IMG/VR virus record: IMGVR_UViG_3300034161_000008
Span: 1 to 64,000 of that record
DNA: 64,000 bases
DNA from: a virus
Lineage: Duplodnaviria; Caudoviricetes
Reading direction: 5' to 3' (one strand)
Shown: positions 4,833 through 40,423 of the stretch, one piece after another
Position numbering within the stretch: position 1 is the first letter of the stretch
Layout: each line of letters starts with the position of its first letter
Made by a program: the position numbers and the translations under genes
Notes under the pieces: generated by a model
Seen by the model: only the letters and a program-made list of their open reading frames with translations
What the model was told of the DNA's origin: nothing
Database searches by the model: none

Positions 4833-5606
4833 CTACCCAAGGTATTTTTTTACTGAATCAAGTTCGATCCTGGCCGAGCGACCCAGCAGTCTGAGCCACG
4901 CACGACGGAACCACGAGTAGTGGTCTTCGATAGTTGCACGGGCTGCCAGCGTTTCCAGATACATCATTTTGTTGAGGTTCTCCCGAGCCAGCGCTTCTAG
5001 ATCGGGATACGCATCCTTTAATAGATGCGGTCGCATCCGTTCCAAGTGCAGGCGCATCACGCGCTCACCCTTAGTATCGATTGCGATGTCGTTTTGCCAA
5101 CGACGCCAAAGATCGTGATCGGTGTGAGTCAAATTCGAAGGTTGTACGACACGACCATCGATAACACATATCGACCAACGAGGCTCGAGGATGTAAGTCC
5201 TCTTGACCACTTCGGGCTCTTCAGATGATGCAGTAGCTCCATCATTTTTTACACGGGGAGTTGCACGCCGGTCATGCTCGGTGCCGTCAAACTGCTGACG
5301 ATCTTCCTCACGCTCACGCAACCAACGCTCGTGCTCGCTATGGTTGCTGTCCGACGGTGGTATCAGGTGTTTTCCGAACTGCTCATTAGCAAAGTGTTTG
5401 CGATCGGTGCGTGACATGGGGTTTTCCTCTCGTCGCTCACGCAACCACCGAGCATGATCAAAATGCCGAGGGCTCGATGGAGGAATCACTTCCTCATCGA
5501 CGGTAACACGCAAGAAAGGCAAGTTTGGTTTGCGGGGTGGTTGCATGACAGTGCTCAGCATTAACTCATGAGGCGACCTAATGGATAGAGAAAGCGCCGC
5601 CACCAC
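4833..5606 (-). CDS. Hypothetical protein with internal repeat
   Basis: 257-aa ORF containing two copies of IPPS-x3-H-x2-H-x-RWLRER-x-E. True start may be internal. Confidence 0.6.
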   Translation of the reverse strand: MVAALSLSIRSPHELMLSTVMQPPRKPNLPFLRVTVDEEVIPPSSPRHFDHARWLRERREENPMSRTDRKHFANEQFGKHLIPPSDSNHSEHERWLREREEDRQQFDGTEHDRRATPRVKNDGATASSEEPEVVKRTYILEPRWSICVIDGRVVQPSNLTHTDHDLWRRWQNDIAIDTKGERVMRLHLERMRPHLLKDAYPDLEALARENLNKMMYLETLAARATIEDHYSWFRRAWLRLLGRSARIELDSVKKYLG

Positions 5607-5660
5607 GGCTGGCGCTTCTTCCTGTACTTGGTTTGGATGTGGGTCAGTACGACAGCCTGG

Positions 5661-6899
5661 TTAGGACTTCCAACCTTCTGGGGCTTCATTGCCTGGGATA
5701 CCTTTGTCCGTGATGTTTTCGTTAAACCATTTGCGCATCAGCTTGTAGTAATCGGCAACGTAGCTGATGTTGCAGCCGCCGCGACCAATCACAATTGTGC
5801 CGTCTTTATAACCCAGCGGCGCAACCAGGGTGGCATCGTAGGCGCCAAATGCTTCCCACTGTGCGTCAGTCATCTTTGCCTTCGCACCGGCAAACCACTC
5901 TTCGTCGTCCGCTTGTTGCTCGCTGCCTTCGAACGCTTTAATAGAAGGAGTGTGTTCAGGGGTGGTGCTGGCAGTCATCAACACTGGAAGCTTTTGCAGA
6001 TCTTCCGGCAGGGTGGACTTGTCGGCATGTACAGCCCAGTGCACATTGTTCTCACCGTATTCTTTCATCATGGCGCGCACGGTTGCAGCTGGATCTGGAT
6101 CAGCATCGTCAACCGCGAAGTGAATCACAGCACGTGGCTTTTCGTCCATTGCTTGAAGCACTTCACTGCGAACGTCTTCCAGGTCAGCGTTTGGAGCTTC
6201 ACCGATACCAACTTGCCACGCTTCGACGATGTATGGGTTCTTGGTCAGGTGCTGCAAGATTTCCTGAGCCAGTTTCACTACGGCATCGTTACCGTAAGAG
6301 CCCGACTGGATCGCACCGTCCATTACAACGCGGTGGAAATGCGTGGAAAGTTGACGGGCTTGCGGGTTGTAGTTGTTCAGCCCATCGGAACCGAGAACGG
6401 TTTCTTGGACTTCCAGAGGCTTCGCGATTTCACGAGTGGATTCCATCTCGCCGCCATGAGTAGGCAGCAGCTGCTTACCGAGCCATGCGTTGACTACGCC
6501 GGTGTGGGTATTGTTGGGCTCGATGAACATGACGTCGAAGCCAACATCACACTGTGGATCATCCCCACGCGCCTTAACAGCTTCAATGAGCCACGCCGAC
6601 AAAGTCTTCTGAACTATCTTGTCTTTGTACTCAGGCCAGTAGAACACGACAGGGGTGTCACCCTGACAGGCAGCTACGTCGAATGTGCCTTCCATATGCT
6701 GGTCGAAAGTGCGCACCATCTCTACGCCGCCTTTCAGACCTTCGATCTTTTCAGCTCGATGTTCGATCAAGGAGCGAATCGCGGCGCGGAGTGGTTCCGA
6801 CATCCAGCCGGGGAACGAAACTACGTGAGCCATTACGTTGGTATGGACGTACGGCAGCGGCCCAAGGTTCGCAAGGTCTGGCTTAAATGTTTCACTCAT
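5661..6899 (-). CDS. Conserved chimallivirus core-block protein
   Basis: ATG at 6899 preceded by AGGAGA. About 412 aa, located between the DNA polymerase and chimallin. Confidence 0.75.
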   Translation of the reverse strand: MSETFKPDLANLGPLPYVHTNVMAHVVSFPGWMSEPLRAAIRSLIEHRAEKIEGLKGGVEMVRTFDQHMEGTFDVAACQGDTPVVFYWPEYKDKIVQKTLSAWLIEAVKARGDDPQCDVGFDVMFIEPNNTHTGVVNAWLGKQLLPTHGGEMESTREIAKPLEVQETVLGSDGLNNYNPQARQLSTHFHRVVMDGAIQSGSYGNDAVVKLAQEILQHLTKNPYIVEAWQVGIGEAPNADLEDVRSEVLQAMDEKPRAVIHFAVDDADPDPAATVRAMMKEYGENNVHWAVHADKSTLPEDLQKLPVLMTASTTPEHTPSIKAFEGSEQQADDEEWFAGAKAKMTDAQWEAFGAYDATLVAPLGYKDGTIVIGRGGCNISYVADYYKLMRKWFNENITDKGIPGNEAPEGWKS

Positions 6900-8015: not shown

Positions 8016-8069
8016 CGGCATAAAGACCACTCCCCAGGGTAGCTTAAAGCTCCCTGGGGTTTATGTCGG
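8016..8069. terminator. Bidirectional hairpin with TTATG(C/T)CG boxes
   Basis: CGGCATAAA...CCCCAGGG-loop-CCCTGGGG-TTTATGTCGG fills the gap between two convergent stop codons. Confidence 0.7.
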
Positions 8070-10184
8070 TTAGTGGAAATCCGACACAAGTTTGGTGATC
8101 TTTGAATCGAGCCAGTAGTGCCCGAGCGTTTCGAGGATGATGTAAAACACTTTAGAGCTGTCCAGTACGATCTTCCGCACACCAATGCGGTCGAAGATTT
8201 CCGAAGGTATACCTTTGGATTGTAAGCATTGTTCTGGCAACTGGAACGTCGTTAGATTCTTACGGCCCGTACGGTCAACCCAACCCTGCATACGCGCAGC
8301 CAACGCACGATCTTCCATCCCATCGATCCAGTTCTTCAGATCGGTCTTGGTGTTGATGTCAGAAGACACCTTAACACACATGTAGGGTGGCTCTGGCGTG
8401 TCGCCGTATTTGGGTGCAAACACTTCCTGCCACAGCTGGTAGTGCATGAACGGAGATTCTTCAGCAGACTTCTTGTAGCCCTCGGCGTCTTTGATTTGAC
8501 CGATACGGAAATACTCGTAACTGCCAACACGCATGGACTCAATAATGTCGCGCTCAATCCGTGCTACCCACTTGAGGATATAATCAATGGAAATCTCGCC
8601 GTGTTCGATAAGCTGTTCCATGATGTAGATCATCATTTTCTTAGCTTCTTCCATGACGATCTTCGGCGCTTTAGAGGTCTTCAGGTGAACACCCTTGATC
8701 TCGTTCTTGTAAGCGTCGAACAAGTTACCTTCCTGGCAACCAATCAGTGCAAAGTAGTGTTTGGCTACCTGCGTCGGCGTGAAGACGTCGAACTTGAATT
8801 CGTTCTTCATCGCAATCTGGAACAGACGTTTGTTCTCGATACCGAAGTTGGCAGACATCTTGGCCAACACGTGTACGATAGTCTGAGCAGACAAAAAAAT
8901 CATAGTTGCAGCAAGCGCGTTGTCTTCGTCGCGGAAACCCAACTTACCTGCTTTCCAGATTACCCAATCCTGCACGGTGAAGATCGTGGAGTCAGTGTCC
9001 CCAGTCAATGCGGCTCGGCGGATACTGAAAGGGAAATATGCCACGGATGCTGGCATGTTGTCCGAAACCCACAGGCACTTAATCATGTCCCCGTATTCGG
9101 TCAGCACGTTCTGGATGTTCACGATGGTGGAGGCTACGATTGCAGCTTCACGAGTACCACCGATCTTGACGATCTCTTTACCCTTCATTTCCTGAGGGCA
9201 GATCTGGCACGCCAAGTGAACGTGATCTTCCATGGCATTCTTAATGACGCTGGCGGAGTCTGGATGTTCTTCACCCACACGCATGCTCAGACGACCTAAG
9301 AAGTCACGAACCAAGTTCTCGTTGTACTGCATCAGCCAATACAGATCGCCCGTGTAAACGAATGCTGCGCGTTGCAGGTCGTTCAGCTTGGAGACGATGC
9401 GATGAATGTCCAGATACTGACTGGTCGTTTGGAAGTACAGGCGCGCAGAGAACTCAATGCACGCCATCGTTTCGCGCACAGACGGAATGCGAATGTTGTA
9501 CTTCTCGACGACTGCTGCCAGCTTAGCGTAGTCCGTGTTACGAACAATGCTGATGATGTTGTTGCGAACGATGTCTGCGTTCCAGTAGTGACGATTGCCT
9601 GAGAGGAACTTCTCGTTGTTGGCGTTGCCGTAGCCTGCTGTCACGCGGCAGTTGCTGGTCAGCGTGGAGTGAGCCGTTTTGTTGTACAACGGCGTACCTG
9701 GTGTAACGTGGCCGCCGGAGATGGCGTTGTTAGCCAGCTTCTTACCCGTCTGCTCAATCTTCTTGATCTGACGGACTGGTTCGTTCTTTTCCATTTCAGC
9801 ACGGAACATTGCTTTCTTAGCAACACCCCGTGCAGCAACGTTTGAGTCGATGTACGCAACCAGCAGAGACTCCTGACGCTCTGTTGGAATGTACACGGTA
9901 AAGGTCGGAGCTACGAGGTTACGCTGCTCAACGATCTCACCCAAGTAACGAGTCAGTGGTTGTTGCTTCTTGGAGCGGTCACCGTTATCACCACGTTCAA
10001 AGAACTGAACGTTTGGATCAATCATCTTCTCCTTGGCTTTACGCTTAACGAAATCCAGACACGTCTGATAAGGTGCGCCTGTTTCGATTTGAAGTGCTAG
10101 AGCTCCGTCCTCCACGTAGTGATGGAGAACGTTAATATCTCGCTTGTAGTCTTGCTTAGGTAACACAAATGGATTTTCGAACAT
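8070..10184 (-). CDS. Family-B DNA polymerase, polymerase-domain subunit (phiKZ gp50-like split PolB)
   Basis: Motif C TGDTDSTIF and motif B-like KKLANNAISG. No exonuclease domain is apparent, consistent with the split PolB of phiKZ-like phages. Confidence 0.9.
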   Translation of the reverse strand: MFENPFVLPKQDYKRDINVLHHYVEDGALALQIETGAPYQTCLDFVKRKAKEKMIDPNVQFFERGDNGDRSKKQQPLTRYLGEIVEQRNLVAPTFTVYIPTERQESLLVAYIDSNVAARGVAKKAMFRAEMEKNEPVRQIKKIEQTGKKLANNAISGGHVTPGTPLYNKTAHSTLTSNCRVTAGYGNANNEKFLSGNRHYWNADIVRNNIISIVRNTDYAKLAAVVEKYNIRIPSVRETMACIEFSARLYFQTTSQYLDIHRIVSKLNDLQRAAFVYTGDLYWLMQYNENLVRDFLGRLSMRVGEEHPDSASVIKNAMEDHVHLACQICPQEMKGKEIVKIGGTREAAIVASTIVNIQNVLTEYGDMIKCLWVSDNMPASVAYFPFSIRRAALTGDTDSTIFTVQDWVIWKAGKLGFRDEDNALAATMIFLSAQTIVHVLAKMSANFGIENKRLFQIAMKNEFKFDVFTPTQVAKHYFALIGCQEGNLFDAYKNEIKGVHLKTSKAPKIVMEEAKKMMIYIMEQLIEHGEISIDYILKWVARIERDIIESMRVGSYEYFRIGQIKDAEGYKKSAEESPFMHYQLWQEVFAPKYGDTPEPPYMCVKVSSDINTKTDLKNWIDGMEDRALAARMQGWVDRTGRKNLTTFQLPEQCLQSKGIPSEIFDRIGVRKIVLDSSKVFYIILETLGHYWLDSKITKLVSDFH

Positions 10185-10267
10185 CTCAATTTCCCTGAAC
10201 GTGACTCACTACAGCATTGGTTGTCGGAGTAAAAAAACCTGCAACGGCATAAGAGGCAGCCACAAGG

Positions 10268-10310
10268 CCACCCGAGAGCAAAAAAAAAAAGAGGGAGTGT
10301 GAATCCCTCG
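10268..10310 (-). terminator. Intrinsic terminator
   Basis: Minus strand GAGGGA-TTCACAC-TCCCTC followed by a long T tract. Confidence 0.8.
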
Positions 10311-10319
10311 AATAGCCAT

Positions 10320-10545
10320 TTGCAACTTAAACTGGAAAGAGGCGGAAACCCCGCTGAGTGGCTTAGCGCAACCAGCAGCACAGAGGCAGCGGTTCGGGCC
10401 GATCGTCGTTAGCCAGCCACCACAAGGTGCGCTTAACGGGACCGGCAATTGCGCAACGGGTAAGGACGACAGTAGGCCGGGCGAGGCGAGTCGACAGTAC
10501 CACGAACAGCGGTCAGCGGGGTTTCCTATAACATGGCCATCTGCC
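10320..10545 (-). ncRNA. Candidate structured RNA or cis-element
   Basis: Perfect 14-bp inverted repeat GGAAACCCCGCTGA (10344-10357) / TCAGCGGGGTTTCC (10513-10526) enclosing nested short stems, followed by a terminator. Strand tentative. Confidence 0.45.
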
Positions 10546-10554
10546 AGTAATTTT

Positions 10555-10953
10555 TTACTCGAAGTTGACTTTGATGTTCGGGAAGCCGTTCTTGAGCAGA
10601 GCGGCTGCGATCTTCGGACCATCCTCAAGAGTGATGCCATCAATCACGACATTCGCGCGTTTGAACTCGACCACAGTTACCGTTGAGTCCTTGATCCAAG
10701 GGATTCCGATACACGTAATAGCGCCGGATTGGGTAAGGATTTTGATGTAGTTGTATCCACCGGGGTTGTTTGGAGTCCCCGACGGCAGGTACGGATACAC
10801 GTTTACGTGCATGGACTGGGTACTGATAATCTGGTTCGCCGAATCCTTGTCGAGGATCGCCAAAACTTTGACGTTCTTGAAGTCCGAGCCCAAGATTGCA
10901 TTGGGATAAACTTCGAACGTATACGTCAGTCCGATTTTGAAGTCGTAACTCAT
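10555..10953 (-). CDS. Conserved chimallivirus small beta-rich protein (phiKZ gp49-like by synteny)
   Basis: 132 aa, RBS GGAG, immediately upstream of the DNA polymerase. Confidence 0.75.
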   Translation of the reverse strand: MSYDFKIGLTYTFEVYPNAILGSDFKNVKVLAILDKDSANQIISTQSMHVNVYPYLPSGTPNNPGGYNYIKILTQSGAITCIGIPWIKDSTVTVVEFKRANVVIDGITLEDGPKIAAALLKNGFPNIKVNFE

Positions 10954-11254
10954 GGGTGAACTCCGAGAAGTCGTAGTGGATCAGTATCACGCTGGCTGCT
11001 GGGATTATGCTGATGCCCTCTGCATAATTTAAGCTGATTCCAATGCGATCTAGTTCCTCGCGGACCAAGTTGGAGTATTCGTAAAGATCGTTATCGGGAC
11101 ATTCGTTACCGCCTTCCAGGAGGTCGAACAGTTTGTCTTCAAATGCGGGCGGACAGACATCGCCATCCATGGCAAAGTCAGGATCACTGGACGCCAACAC
11201 AGCTGCCACGAAATCCTTCACGGCAGGTGATTCTATTAATAGTGTTACCATCAC
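10640..11254 (-). CDS. Hypothetical acidic protein. The N-terminal ~100 aa look coding; the C-terminus overlaps the next gene out of frame.
   Basis: N-terminal composition matches the neighbouring array. The frame runs 314 nt into 10555..10953. Confidence 0.5.
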   Translation of the reverse strand: MMVTLLIESPAVKDFVAAVLASSDPDFAMDGDVCPPAFEDKLFDLLEGGNECPDNDLYEYSNLVREELDRIGISLNYAEGISIIPAASVILIHYDFSEFTHELRLQNRTDVYVRSLSQCNLGLGLQERQSFGDPRQGFGEPDYQYPVHARKRVSVPAVGDSKQPRWIQLHQNPYPIRRYYVYRNPLDQGLNGNCGRVQTRECRD

Positions 11255-11260
11255 TGGTCT

Positions 11261-11638
11261 CTAGTATGGGAGTTTGGCCAACACTAAGTCTTTACCTAGT
11301 AGGTCGCTATAGAAATAGCCTAGGGTAGATTCAGCCTTGTACAAACCCAGTGCCTTGATTTCTGCCAGAACCGCTAAGCCTAAGTTCATCACAGCTATAC
11401 TCAATAACACACCGTCAGCCAGTAATTTTTCATCTTGTATCCTTACACCTAATCCGATGCAGGAATACATGAGGCTCATCGACTTCATTTGGTCTTCACA
11501 CTTCTCGCCAAGATTACACACGGCGATGATGCGGGCAAAGACTTCCTTGATGTCGACATCCGTGCCCTTGATGTGGCGTAACTCCCGTTCAAACTTCATC
11601 ACCGCAGGCCTCGTGCTAACGATGATTGCCCCCGGCAT
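11261..11638 (-). CDS. Hypothetical protein, paralog-array member
   Basis: Start MPGAII at 11638 (RBS GGAG). C-terminal motif ALGLYKAESTLGYFY. Confidence 0.72.
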   Translation of the reverse strand: MPGAIIVSTRPAVMKFERELRHIKGTDVDIKEVFARIIAVCNLGEKCEDQMKSMSLMYSCIGLGVRIQDEKLLADGVLLSIAVMNLGLAVLAEIKALGLYKAESTLGYFYSDLLGKDLVLAKLPY

Positions 11639-14266: not shown

Positions 14267-14674
14267 TTAGGTAGCCGATCTTTCTTTACCTGAAAACATA
14301 GTCAGCAATACCGTGTAGGGCTTCGTGTAGCCGCTCACGTACGCCGTTACGTTACCAAACTCATCGTAGCAGCCCTGATCGATTAGGTGCTCTTGTACGA
14401 GCTTTAAGCCCGTTCTGAGTTCTTTGTGTATTTTGGCCAAAGGTGGGTCCGGGAACATGACATTGAGCACTTCGTCGATCGCAGCGAAGAACTCTTCGGA
14501 AGCCACACCGAAGTTGTCCACACGGTTCAGCACGTTGGCCACACCCTGCGAGATCATGTTCTGCATTTGTTGCGCTTGATCAGGAATGCATTCCAGTACC
14601 ACGAACATGTAATCCAGAAACTCTGACCCCGGATCAAGTTCAAACGACCAAGTTTTAGGTAGCTTCATTTCCAC
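14267..14674 (-). CDS. Hypothetical protein, paralog-array member
   Basis: 135 aa, RBS GGAG. Motif DQGCYDEFGNVTAY. Confidence 0.72.
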   Translation of the reverse strand: MEMKLPKTWSFELDPGSEFLDYMFVVLECIPDQAQQMQNMISQGVANVLNRVDNFGVASEEFFAAIDEVLNVMFPDPPLAKIHKELRTGLKLVQEHLIDQGCYDEFGNVTAYVSGYTKPYTVLLTMFSGKERSAT

Positions 14675-14706
14675 TCCGAAAAAGTTTGCGGCATAAAAGT
14701 TAGGTT

Positions 14707-15223
14707 GGCCCTCTCCCGATTATGCTCGCTATCATGATAGCATGCGATAACCTTGGTCCGGCTTCTCTTTCGAGTCCGGGGGAGAGTGGGCCGTCTTTGT
14801 TACTGTCGAGCTCTTGAGAGGGGGGTTCAGTCCACGTTACTCGGTTGCCAAAAAGCGCTTGAGCCAGTCGAACTGGTTTAAGTGCTGTTCCCGTGCCTTA
14901 CTCAAATAACCAGATTTCCACCATCCGGTGGTTAACCGAAACATGTCCGGCTTTATAGGGGGTCTGTCCGGCCTAGGATTGGCTTAGCCACTCGCCCGAT
15001 GAGTGTGGTCCCAATGTTCAGGGGCCTGCTTTTGCGCAAGTAGGTTATCAAAGTCCCGAGGGACCAGGATGATTACTAATCCTAGATGGAACAGGAGTTG
15101 CAGAATGAAGAGGACAAGCCCCAGCATTTAACAGTCCTAGCGTGTAGCGCTTGGCGAAGTGAGAGTCCTTGATCTGGGGTGGGTCGACCGGTTTTAATGG
15201 TGGACTTCTTCAGCTCTCACTCG
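14707..15223 (+). ncRNA. Candidate large structured non-coding RNA
   Basis: No credible ORF over ~550 nt. Long-range closing stem 14815-14835/15200-15219, nested helices and about ten G-U pairs that work only on the + strand. Confidence 0.62.
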
Positions 15224-15255
15224 CGAGCACTAAGCTTCAGGATGGATCAGTGCAA

Positions 15256-15519
15256 TCACCCGAGCAAACAAGAGCCATGATCTTGCGCTGGGTCATGCGA
15301 TTCCTTGTTGCGCCCGGAAGCCACTACCTGATCTGGATCATCCAACCCAGGGTAAAGGTCTTCGGGTTGACGGGGGTCTTCAATAGTCCACTCTTGCGTG
15401 CGTAGTGCGATCGGCAGGCGATTCTCGGCCACCGTGACACCATGACCCGCGAGAGCAACACCCAGGGCAAGGGCTAAACCCATGCCACCCCCGATAACGA
15501 GGATTCTTGATGAACGCAT
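15256..15519 (-). CDS. Small protein beginning with a Rossmann-like beta-alpha-beta (dinucleotide-binding) segment
   Basis: RILVIGGGMGLALALGVALAGHGVTVAE resembles the GxGxxG FAD-binding start. RBS AGGA. The segment could instead be a signal or TM helix. Confidence 0.6.
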   Translation of the reverse strand: MRSSRILVIGGGMGLALALGVALAGHGVTVAENRLPIALRTQEWTIEDPRQPEDLYPGLDDPDQVVASGRNKESHDPAQDHGSCLLG

Positions 15520-15539: not shown

Positions 15540-16535
15540 TTACAGGAAGAGGCCGTTGTTGTTTGGCTTGCTGCCGTCGCTGATACCTTTCACACTTTTG
15601 CGCGACTCTTGTTGCTGAGTCAGCTCAGTGATGCGGGCTTCCATTTCGCGAGTCTTCTCGATCAACAGACCTTCAGACGTGACGAAGTGGACAGGTGCTT
15701 TGGCGATGGCCGCCACGTTGCTGAAACCGCGGTAGCGAATGTCCGGGGTGATCGGCAGACTGTAGTCGGTGCCTGGAGCCATCAGCGTGACGGTGCTGAT
15801 AACTTGACCCAGTGCCGAGAAGGTCTCGTCTTTGTCGACCATGTTCAACGAAACCAGTTTGGCGTCGTTGTCGGTGCCGACAGTGTAGTTCTGCCAGTTG
15901 CGGATGTCCTTGCGGTCCAGGCCTTTGTTCTGGCGACTGAACAGCACTTGCAGGCCGGAGATCAGTTCTTGCACTTGTTCCTGCACCTGAGCAGTCGGTG
16001 TGCCACGGCCGTATTCGGCGTAGTACATCGCCAGCGGGTTACCGGATTCACGCGAGAAGTGGTCGTACGATTTCAGGCAGTTCAGGCTGTTGCGGATTTC
16101 TACTTTGTCGCCCCATGTTGCAATGCCAACAGCAACAATGGTAGACGCGCCGCGAGTCAGCAGCTCTTTGGCCAGGTAGCGTGCGAACACGGAACCGGTG
16201 CCGCCGGAAAGCGAGCTGATGATGACGACGCTGTCGCTTGGTGCGTGCTTGCTCAGCAGGTCCTTGATTACCAGGCCGATCTCTTCTGCGTTTTCAGCAG
16301 GGATCTTGCCAGAGCCATCCAGCTCTTCGCCATCGGAGGTCTTTTCGAGCAGGTAAATAGCTTCGGCCGGAATGGTGCTGTCCAGGTCGGAGGTGCTGGT
16401 ATCGATGTAAACCGAGTCCAGGGAAGCAAAGCCCGGAAGATCTTTGTTACGGTCCGCCTCGAACACTTTAGCGATGTCCGTTGCGATACCGCCACAAACG
16501 TACATGCTGATGCGACCTTTAACTTCGAGTTCCAT
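15540..16535 (-). CDS. phuZ: PhuZ phage tubulin
   Basis: CGG N-terminal loop, tubulin signature SLSGGTGS, T7-loop-like GLDRKD, short C-terminal tail ending GLFL, 331 aa. Confidence 0.95.
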   Translation of the reverse strand: MELEVKGRISMYVCGGIATDIAKVFEADRNKDLPGFASLDSVYIDTSTSDLDSTIPAEAIYLLEKTSDGEELDGSGKIPAENAEEIGLVIKDLLSKHAPSDSVVIISSLSGGTGSVFARYLAKELLTRGASTIVAVGIATWGDKVEIRNSLNCLKSYDHFSRESGNPLAMYYAEYGRGTPTAQVQEQVQELISGLQVLFSRQNKGLDRKDIRNWQNYTVGTDNDAKLVSLNMVDKDETFSALGQVISTVTLMAPGTDYSLPITPDIRYRGFSNVAAIAKAPVHFVTSEGLLIEKTREMEARITELTQQQESRKSVKGISDGSKPNNNGLFL

Positions 16536-18206: not shown

Positions 18207-18266
18207 TGGGTGGAGCCTTCGGGCTCCGCTTATGCCGCAAAAAAAGAAGGGCGATGCGCGCCCTTC
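18207..18266. terminator. Back-to-back terminators
   Basis: + strand GGAGCC-TTCG-GGCTCC then TTATGCCG. Minus strand GAAGGGCG/CGCCCTTC hairpin then T8. Confidence 0.8.
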
Positions 18267-40023: not shown

Positions 40024-40423
40024 CCGATACCCTAGGAAAGTGTTGGGTGTTCGCTTTTGTGATCTCTCCACAAAGCGTAACTTCAATACCGTGTGCTTCC
40101 AGATATTTCTTCACCACCATTATCAGCAGGTGACGGTGACAGAATTGTCCGGCTCGACAGTAACAGGCGAGTGCAACAGTATCATACCCTTTAAGTTCCT
40201 CCCAACGCCCAGGATTCAATTCCTGAGATTCAGCCATCTTGGCTAGGTAGAGTCTGGTGTATTCCTCCTCAGACATCTTGCCATTTTTGTAATCCCACAC
40301 CTTGCTCATGTCCGGAGCGAAGGCGGCGATCCCACTCTTAGCGGTCGTATCGAGCATCTCAATGCCTAACGACTTACAGAGCCTCCATTGCGCGATCTGA
40401 ACGGTGTAGATCCTAATTGCCAC
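39929..40423 (-). CDS. DUF488-family protein
   Basis: GTG start at 40423 (RBS GGAG). IYTVQ start, LAP-like FAPD, EEEYTRLY and VALACYC-x4-FCHRHLL. Confidence 0.75.
   Translation of the reverse strand: MAIRIYTVQIAQWRLCKSLGIEMLDTTAKSGIAAFAPDMSKVWDYKNGKMSEEEYTRLYLAKMAESQELNPGRWEELKGYDTVALACYCRAGQFCHRHLLIMVVKKYLEAHGIEVTLCGEITKANTQHFPRVSDDGHNKGTAGETNSADGIPASLLSTRDTGPP

Follow-up and report, generated by a model that had tools for sequence, protein, structure and literature searches.

What does a jumbo phage keep in the gap that follows phuZ, its tubulin gene, and from which strand is it read? The stretch of DNA analysed here (the window, 64 kb) is the first part of a 218,436-bp IMG/VR virus record with direct terminal repeats (IMGVR_UViG_3300034161_000008), which stems from an uncultivated nucleus-forming jumbo phage. 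In this genome a gap of 581-587 nt (14675-15255) separates an 87-aa gene downstream of phuZ from the next gene (start 14668/14674). The original prediction for this locus saw no credible open reading frame (ORF) in the gap and proposed a ~500-nt antisense non-coding RNA, transcribed from the + strand and folded as one hierarchical unit that is closed by a stem 14815-14835/15200-15219. Comparison with related phages leads to another answer. The element is a folded non-coding RNA of the phage which belongs to no catalogued family and is found in a narrow uncultivated clade, and judging from its base pairs it most likely resides on the minus strand, just as the neighbouring genes do. On balance, we consider it probable that the gap as a whole is a sense-strand composite, in which a leader and a small membrane-protein gene precede a structured 3' end of the phuZ transcription unit that includes a swappable peripheral domain.

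Conservation, covariation and the 3' junction

Relatives were contigs with the same gene order that were reached via PhuZ homologues in a large protein collection. They comprise near-identical phages (L046, L053 and L055-L061; the next gene is identical or PhuZ is 95% identical), intermediate lineages (L054 and L062, about 86%), two further lineages (L045 and L052 with 61% and L064 with 50% PhuZ identity), a second clade (L047-L051, 52%) and the next relatives (L065 and L066, 39%). The ORF-poor stretch after phuZ is kept in all of them. An alignment of the window with L045 over 6.3 syntenic kb placed its three longest runs of identity in the gap (14754-14812, 59 nt; 14976-15011, 36 nt; 14689-14717, 29 nt), while the longest run outside it had a length of 23 nt. 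In this alignment the nucleotide sequence of the gap is more conserved than every neighbouring coding region including the tubulin gene. The identical runs alternate with diverged stretches and a single recent transfer is therefore insufficient as an explanation. Another stretch of high identity between the same two phages (11211-11329; 85-87% over 120 nt, with runs of 20-23 nt) comprises the start of a 204-aa gene and the sequence just upstream of it.

The conserved folded part of the gap covers about 290 nt (14697-14990). Of ten short conserved helices, at least eight stay paired through compensatory, two-sided changes across four to six lineages (Table 1). Beyond the replacements listed there, the loop of h2 reads UUCG in L055, one position of hA is C.A in the window's group and U.G in L047 and L048, and Pb, which includes a 14-bp palindrome, has changed from U-A to C-G in L057 and L054, from G-C to C-G in L045, and carries one position that occurs as U.G, C-G and U-A. 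The arms of P1 read GGCCCUCC/GGAGGGCC in L047 and GGCUCUCC/GGAGAGCC in L048, with changes from C-G to U-A, and in the stem closing the variable domain U-A is replaced by C-G in L045. All lineages keep UCGGG in the hB loop as well as UGGCUAA after hB, the latter despite a reading frame over it that differs between lineages; hB itself lies within the 36-nt run shared with L045. A covariance model of a four-hairpin core that was built only from the window's group detected the second clade at the syntenic place and on the sense strand (L047, E=0.0012; L048, E=0.034; filters off), and these matches display the same hairpin order with different helix sequences. For the window's group alone the signal is weak; the covariation score amounted to 0.112 compared with 0.079 in shuffles and was reached by one out of 500 shuffles. 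Two further pairings were examined and rejected. Sense-strand RNAalifold suggested a long-range pairing of the hB 3' arm with the P1 5' arm, as a switch with hB and P1, but both partners are invariant and the complementarity is absent in L047; for a pseudoknot joining the hB loop to the h4 5' arm, the supporting change is ambiguous since it strengthens h4 as well.

The longest of the identical runs, an invariant 59-nt block, is not coding because a 1-nt insertion occurs in it (Pa loop, L055-L057). A peptide encoded by the block was ruled out by this indel together with the absence of any synonymous change. Elsewhere in the window, on the minus strand of a small-gene island (40152-40165), there is a 14-nt word, TGTTACTGTCGAGC, which is exactly complementary to part of the invariant junction (14798-14811); about one such match is expected by chance.

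On its downstream side the folded part is followed by the motif TTATGCCG, located 21 nt before the ATG at 14668 and kept in all relatives. The genome contains 25 copies of the motif, as compared to about 7 expected, and most of them are situated directly after a G+C-rich hairpin and before a gene. In phage phiKZ the late promoter is TATG with its last G as the start site (PMC4666361). As the copies of TTATGCCG mostly follow hairpins and TATG is the phiKZ late promoter, the three-way junction would sit at the position expected for the terminator hairpin of the upstream transcript. P1, which closes this junction, is located 10 nt further upstream of the motif than the hairpins of the other copies. 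Examples of hairpins combined with TTATGCCG are found on the minus strand at 8023, 10252, 19511, 37983 and 41723 and on the + strand at 18230, 27354 and 38515. Some hairpins are flanked symmetrically by CGGCATAA and TTATGCCG (G000 195031/195082), such that the unit is readable on both strands. A different word, TTACTTATTAC(C/T), recurs upstream of genes (window 17366, 25543 and 41692, minus strand; G000 107373 and 123610) and resembles AT-rich early or middle promoter motifs of phiKZ-like phages.

Table 1. Features of the post-phuZ gap and of its surroundings (positions in the window)
Feature	Position	Strand	Remarks
h2, GUCC-CUCG-GGAC	15053-15064	minus	within small ORF; GUCC/GGAC replaced by CUCC/GGAG (L062) and CCCC/GGGG (L045)
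hA	15007-15026	minus	3' part of small ORF; three positions change on both sides across lineages
hB, CACUC-AUCGGGC-GAGUG	14989-15005	minus	last codons of small ORF; replaced by CCAUC/GAUGG (L047) and CCAAC/GUUGG (L048)
h4	14935-14951	minus	six different arm pairs, all paired; G-U pairs on minus strand only
h5, CCACC-GGAU-GGUGG	14918-14931	minus	CCACC/GGTGG of the original prediction; replaced by UACC/GGUA (L045) and GCGC/GCGU (L047/L048)
Variable domain	14814-14905	minus	stem UUGAG (14901-14905)/CUCAA (14814-14818) closing the 78-nt cassette 14819-14896
Invariant 59-nt block	14754-14812	minus	single-stranded junction (GAGCUCGACAGUAACAAAGAC), 5' arm of P1, hairpin Pa
Three-way junction	14707-14792	minus	P1 14780-14792/14707-14717; Pa, GAAA loop, 14758-14779; Pb 14724-14745
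TTATGCCG motif	14689-14696	minus	predicted late-type promoter of next gene; start at G of TATG (14692)
Small ORF, 47 aa	14984-15127	minus	N-terminal hydrophobic helix, polar tail ending DHTHRASG
Leader, 87-aa gene stop to small ORF	15128-15255	minus	hairpins 15227-15253, 15214-15224/15154-15165 and 15139-15151 (sequence, alignment)
87-aa gene downstream of phuZ	15256-15519	minus	small protein, hydrophobic N-terminus (ORF list, translation)
PhuZ	15540-16535	minus	PHROG 4733, E 7e-62
Divergent family B DNA polymerase	8070-10184	minus

Strand preference, small gene and exchanged cassette

Read on the minus strand, the curated helices consist of 147 Watson-Crick, 12 G-U and two A-C pairs. The 12 G-U pairs would therefore be mismatches on the + strand, and both A-C pairs fall on a single position that is U.G in the second clade. 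The GAAA (GNRA) and UUCG loops are readable on the minus strand only. When the region from the stop of the small ORF to the promoter was compared with dinucleotide shuffles, z-scores ranged from -1.6 to -3.0 for the sense and from +0.5 to -2.1 for the antisense strand, with the sense value being better in seven out of seven lineages. Summed hairpin energies likewise amount to -250 kcal/mol in sense and -231 kcal/mol in antisense orientation, although the + strand is richer in G+U. RNAalifold energies and the structure conservation index did not separate the strands, and a search for a + strand promoter motif did not find any.

Three metatranscriptomes provide low-depth contigs over both genes and gap, with form C of the cassette described below; two contigs from RNA libraries, X15 and X16, span the cassette site itself with this form. 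One RNA contig (15034-15252) has a depth of 27.9 compared to 3-5 for its neighbours, whereby contigs can show neither strand nor level. The Read-1 adapter follows position 15252, the first base of the hairpin 15227-15253. If the library was dUTP-stranded, this end would fit the 5' end of a minus-strand RNA, which we take as a weak hint.

About a quarter of the gap is occupied by a small ORF for 47 aa that was overlooked when the stretch was described as free of credible reading frames. A Shine-Dalgarno site (AGGA) is located 9 nt upstream of its ATG, and ORF and site are kept at the same position in six lineages (window, L062, L054, L045/L052, L064 and L047/L048), with products of 47-67 aa. 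Indels of 6 and 3 nt preserve the frame, the differences between L045 and L064 are mostly synonymous as read from the sequences, and gene callers did call the ORF in L046, L055-L061, L045 and L062. Some pairs clearly show more changes at third codon positions than at the other two (9/7/17 and 4/2/8), others do not (10/9/10), and the product does not match any PHROG family. With fairly high confidence, the small ORF may be taken as a real gene; its predicted product is a small membrane protein that is new to the phuZ neighbourhood. The leader preceding it is confined to the window's own group, since only short words align with L045/L052. In L047-L051 the small ORF follows a homologue of the 87-aa gene almost directly. 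This homologue is not called in the second clade, where it occupies most of the apparent extra gap; it is present after phuZ at L047:7024-7310 and L048:7027-7295, was missed by the published gene calls, and has a hydrophobic N-terminus and the word (W/Y)T(I)xDPR in common with its counterpart in the window. Homologues of the 87-aa gene also occur in L062 and L045.

The variable domain behaves differently from its surroundings. Its cassette exists in four forms which do not track the flanks: window and L058 are 64% identical within the cassette and 99-100% identical on both sides of it, whereas window and L054 share 98.7% of the cassette and 86.9% of the upstream flank. Phages that are 97-100% identical in the flanks have other sequence at 14819-14896. 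It follows that the cassette has been exchanged between phages. The whole domain is absent from L047-L051. On the minus strand a U5 run comes after the cassette hairpin, and on the + strand an A5 run comes before it.

These findings decide which parts of the original prediction hold. The gap and all helices listed for it, among them the 14-bp palindrome 14728-14741, are indeed present and the helices do contain G-U pairs on the + strand. A structured RNA is supported, with conservation and covariation behind it; its size, hierarchy and lack of an ORF had to be revised, and its strand is probably the opposite one. The conserved helices with 12 G-U and two A-C pairs on the minus strand speak against the + strand as the folded molecule, and the conserved folded part extends over about 150-290 nt rather than ~500. 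Folding of the whole gap yields z-scores of -1.56 (+ strand) and -1.28 (minus strand) against dinucleotide shuffles, 10 of 100 shuffles equalling the natural sequence on each strand, and the closing stem 14815-14835/15200-15219 is not used in the minimum free energy fold. The proposed nesting dissolves because three of its helices (closing stem, 13-bp hairpin and CTGTTCC/GGAACAG) place one arm each in the allele-specific segment 14819-14896 and are thus properties of one allele, form A of the cassette, and not of the element. In L062 and L045 the GCCCCAG/CTGGGGT helix is weakened to -5.5 kcal/mol (from -12.0). For the 10-bp helix 14973-14982/15076-15085 the picture is mixed, with a single compensatory change set against two breaks and an alternative small hairpin at 14971-14983. 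All that survived the comparison were CCACC/GGTGG (14918-14931), the hairpins within the proposed multiway junction and the domain 14707-14792. A helix map drawn from one genome can obviously choose the wrong strand and helices of a single allele.

The preferred reading and its rivals

In the composite that we favour, the 87-aa gene would be followed on the minus strand by a short leader, the 47-aa membrane-protein gene and about 290 nt of folded RNA. Folding would start in the last third of the small gene with h2, hA and hB and proceed through h4, h5 and the stem closing the replaceable domain to the invariant unpaired junction. The RNA would then end in the three-way junction, 10 nt before the TATG-type late promoter of the next gene, and this junction would take the place of the plain terminator hairpin found in other intergenic regions of this genome. 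Transcription would start only at upstream promoters and terminate at the junction. The structured 3' end of the transcript of phuZ, the 87-aa gene and the small ORF could define and protect that end, the invariant unpaired segments would most likely serve as a binding surface for a phage or host factor with a possible regulatory role, and the folded RNA may also be released as a stable RNA. Several observations weigh against this picture. The strand is assigned solely from pair statistics, and some features prefer the opposite one: cassette forms A and B favour the + strand (z -2.5 and -2.65, mononucleotide shuffles), as do hA in the window's group and the 10-bp helix 14973-14982/15076-15085. 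Only about six lineages are independent, part of the covariation lies within coding sequence, and in the four-hairpin core of the window's group no more than two pairs have changed on both sides. Termination at P1 has to be assumed, since 8 nt separate P1 from the U run, unlike in the plain hairpins elsewhere in the genome. The + strand signals are real but local.

These + strand signals are at the centre of two rival explanations. A ~500-nt antisense RNA as originally proposed would account for the better + strand pairing, in the window itself, of the helices listed for it (closing stem -20.8 compared with -17.6, 13-bp hairpin -19.1 compared with -7.5 kcal/mol), for a cassette region that in forms A and B beats shuffles only on the + strand, for a + strand partner of the closing stem that retains some pairing, of -10 to -14 kcal/mol, in the other cassette forms and for a + strand hairpin with a U run at 15007-15035. 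We nevertheless regard it as very unlikely, as its key helices need a cassette for which near-identical phages carry other sequence and which L047-L051 lack, and as the conserved helices would carry 12 A-C mismatches. Moreover, the 3' region of the + strand is no better than shuffles in L055 and L057 (z 0.04 and 0.48), the whole gap reaches a z-score of only -1.56, terminator-like sites occur at chance level (two found, 1.9 expected), no promoter motif recurs on the + strand and the opposite strand encodes a conserved protein. If both strands were functional, the locus might instead constitute a type I toxin-antitoxin-like pair or a timing device, in which a structured mRNA limits translation of a harmful or lytic peptide and a convergent antisense RNA overlaps its 3' end. 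An ORF for a single-helix hydrophobic peptide of 47-67 aa, a hairpin that pairs the start codon in the window's group (AUG/CAU, changed to GUG/CAC in L045), mixed strand signals with local hairpins on the minus strand and cassette hairpin and hA on the + strand, and a cassette hairpin with U5/A5 resembling a shared two-way terminator all fit this idea, and the invariant runs could result from constraint acting on the two strands at once. An antisense promoter was not found, though, the start-codon hairpin is not kept in L047 as read from the sequence, and the cassette, which would form the overlap, is missing in L047-L051. Furthermore, type I systems are not known from lytic chimalliviruses, and such a pair is unlikely in our estimation.

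Two other explanations dispense with a functional RNA fold. Three features would suit a DNA-level element, for instance an origin of replication, a site for packaging or partition, or a promoter/operator of the next gene. The invariant runs lie 15-120 nt upstream of the predicted start site; the palindrome ATCATGAT, with its centre about 43 nt upstream of that site, could bind a protein dimer; and the locus adjoins phuZ at a distance of 4.5 kb from the DNA polymerase gene. Duplex DNA does not need compensatory pairing or G-U pairs on one strand, however, and in L045 the palindrome turns asymmetric exactly as a U.G pair would. Iterons and an AT-rich unwinding stretch are lacking and GC skew does not provide an origin signal at this place, so that only a slender chance is left for this option. 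An ordinary spacer composed of small gene, terminator and promoter, with hairpins devoid of further function, would agree with the insignificant fold of the whole gap, with the membership of the last hairpin and TTATGCCG in a genome-wide regulatory family and with the unrelated sequence in the same slot of the more distant L065 and L066. It is difficult to reconcile with nucleotide conservation above that of every neighbouring coding region, with helices that covary across lineages of 52-61% PhuZ identity and with a sense strand that is consistently more stable than shuffles, and we give it little credence. The composite proposed here could be taken one step further: a new chimallivirus RNA class may exist, in which a conserved scaffold (hA, hB, h4, h5 and the three-way junction with its invariant unpaired runs) presents the horizontally swapped variable domain as a specificity module and becomes a stable RNA once freed from the end of the phuZ operon. 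It could act for example as a decoy or regulator, the target differing between hosts or competing phages. We mention this extension as a doubtful possibility.

Distribution, genomic setting and known systems

The element is restricted to a narrow clade of uncultivated phages, and the sequencing runs that contain the sequence carry the labels peat, wetland and wastewater. Rfam 15 did not yield any match at gathering scores in the 64-kb window and nine related loci, with GOLLD, ROOL, RNase P, tmRNA, group I and II introns and self-cleaving ribozymes included, and at E<=10 only two chance matches appeared, to a miRNA and a snoRNA model (E 1.1 and 3.2), in line with the earlier statement that no RNA family can be recognised. 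ARAGORN did not report tRNA or tmRNA in the window or in the element-carrying loci. DNA searches of a cultured-phage collection with the gap and with the surrounding 10 kb were without match, and the same holds true for tblastn with the next gene, for IMG/VR scans with PhuZ and with two DNA patterns and for a metagenome scan with a PhuZ alignment; a metagenome scan with a DNA pattern retrieved one partial locus, L053. In 43 IMG/VR relatives identified via DNA polymerase (32-58% identical), neither DNA shared with the gap (blastn, nhmmer) nor a match to the covariance model was found. The model does not match L065 and finds a single copy in the phage's own genome. A full-text literature search did not retrieve a description of an RNA at this locus. 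The nearest cultured phage is distant, with a top PhuZ identity of 36%.

Every gene between 8 and 16.5 kb is encoded on the minus strand. In L065 and L066, phuZ and an 86-aa gene are followed by a G+C-rich, ORF-poor stretch of 426 nt (5277-5702 in both) that terminates in a long UUCG hairpin with a U run; it has no Rfam match and is not homologous to the element studied here. L027 (5461-5627) and L033 (5460-5626) carry tRNA-Thr(UGU) and tRNA-Ser(UGA) on the sense strand in the slot directly after phuZ, which seems to be a recurrent site of non-coding genes. In another IMG/VR relative (L030:2967-4334) the phuZ match itself is split into residues 6-112 and 113-320 with ~400 nt between them, and an intron or other insertion may be present in this tubulin gene. 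An ORF-free stretch is also located upstream of the DNA polymerase gene of the window (10185-10640), where a separate second structured element had been proposed; such a stretch recurs in L006, L009, L010, L012, L013 and L032 (about 567 nt before the gene).

The ncRNAs of nucleus-forming phages are barely charted, with few short RNAs mapped, all of them in cultured Pseudomonas phages. Since transcription and translation are physically separated in these phages, RNA-level signals for 3' end formation, stability and export are to be expected. The element described here is a concrete candidate for such a signal, being more conserved than the adjoining tubulin gene, covarying and equipped with an exchanged domain.

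How does it relate to systems already described? Type I toxin mRNAs of the hok/sok and bsrG/SR4 type encode a short hydrophobic peptide and are highly structured, with folding that takes in a long 3' part. The element likewise combines a hydrophobic peptide ORF with a folded 3' part; its setting, in contrast, is a lytic jumbo phage. T4-type phages reportedly possess mobile cassettes of promoters and stem-loops, and a segment exchanged between phages is present here as well. GOLLD and ROOL are also phage-borne and built from several helices, but their covariance models do not match even at E<=10 and the conserved fold of the element measures about 150-290 nt as opposed to 600-800 nt. With the slots for tRNAs and stable RNAs of large phages the element has its location in common, as illustrated by the tRNAs of L027 and L033 in the same slot, whereas a tRNA-like unit is not detected in it by ARAGORN.

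The closest parallels come from nucleus-forming phages themselves. Like the phiKZ-like units of a hairpin and a TATG late promoter (PMC4666361), the element has a G+C-rich helix at its end, and UUUUAUGCCG comes next, immediately before the following gene. Compared with the plain hairpin units of this genome, which comprise 20-40 nt, its helix is an 86-nt three-way junction that lies 10 nt further from the motif and comes after about 200 nt of additional conserved structure that includes invariant unpaired runs. Small RNAs of phiKZ and 201phi2-1 have been mapped by ONT-cappable-seq, among them sRNA005 upstream of a tail gene (PMC11512511). They are shorter than 250 nt and mostly derived from 5' untranslated regions via early termination (PMC11512511), while the element would form the 3' terminus of its transcription unit and extends into the last part of a small gene; it is unrelated to them in sequence and occurs in no cultured phage. 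What unites them is that both are conserved, folded ncRNAs of nucleus-forming phages that keep a syntenic position and, in the case of the element most likely, the sense strand of the flanking genes.

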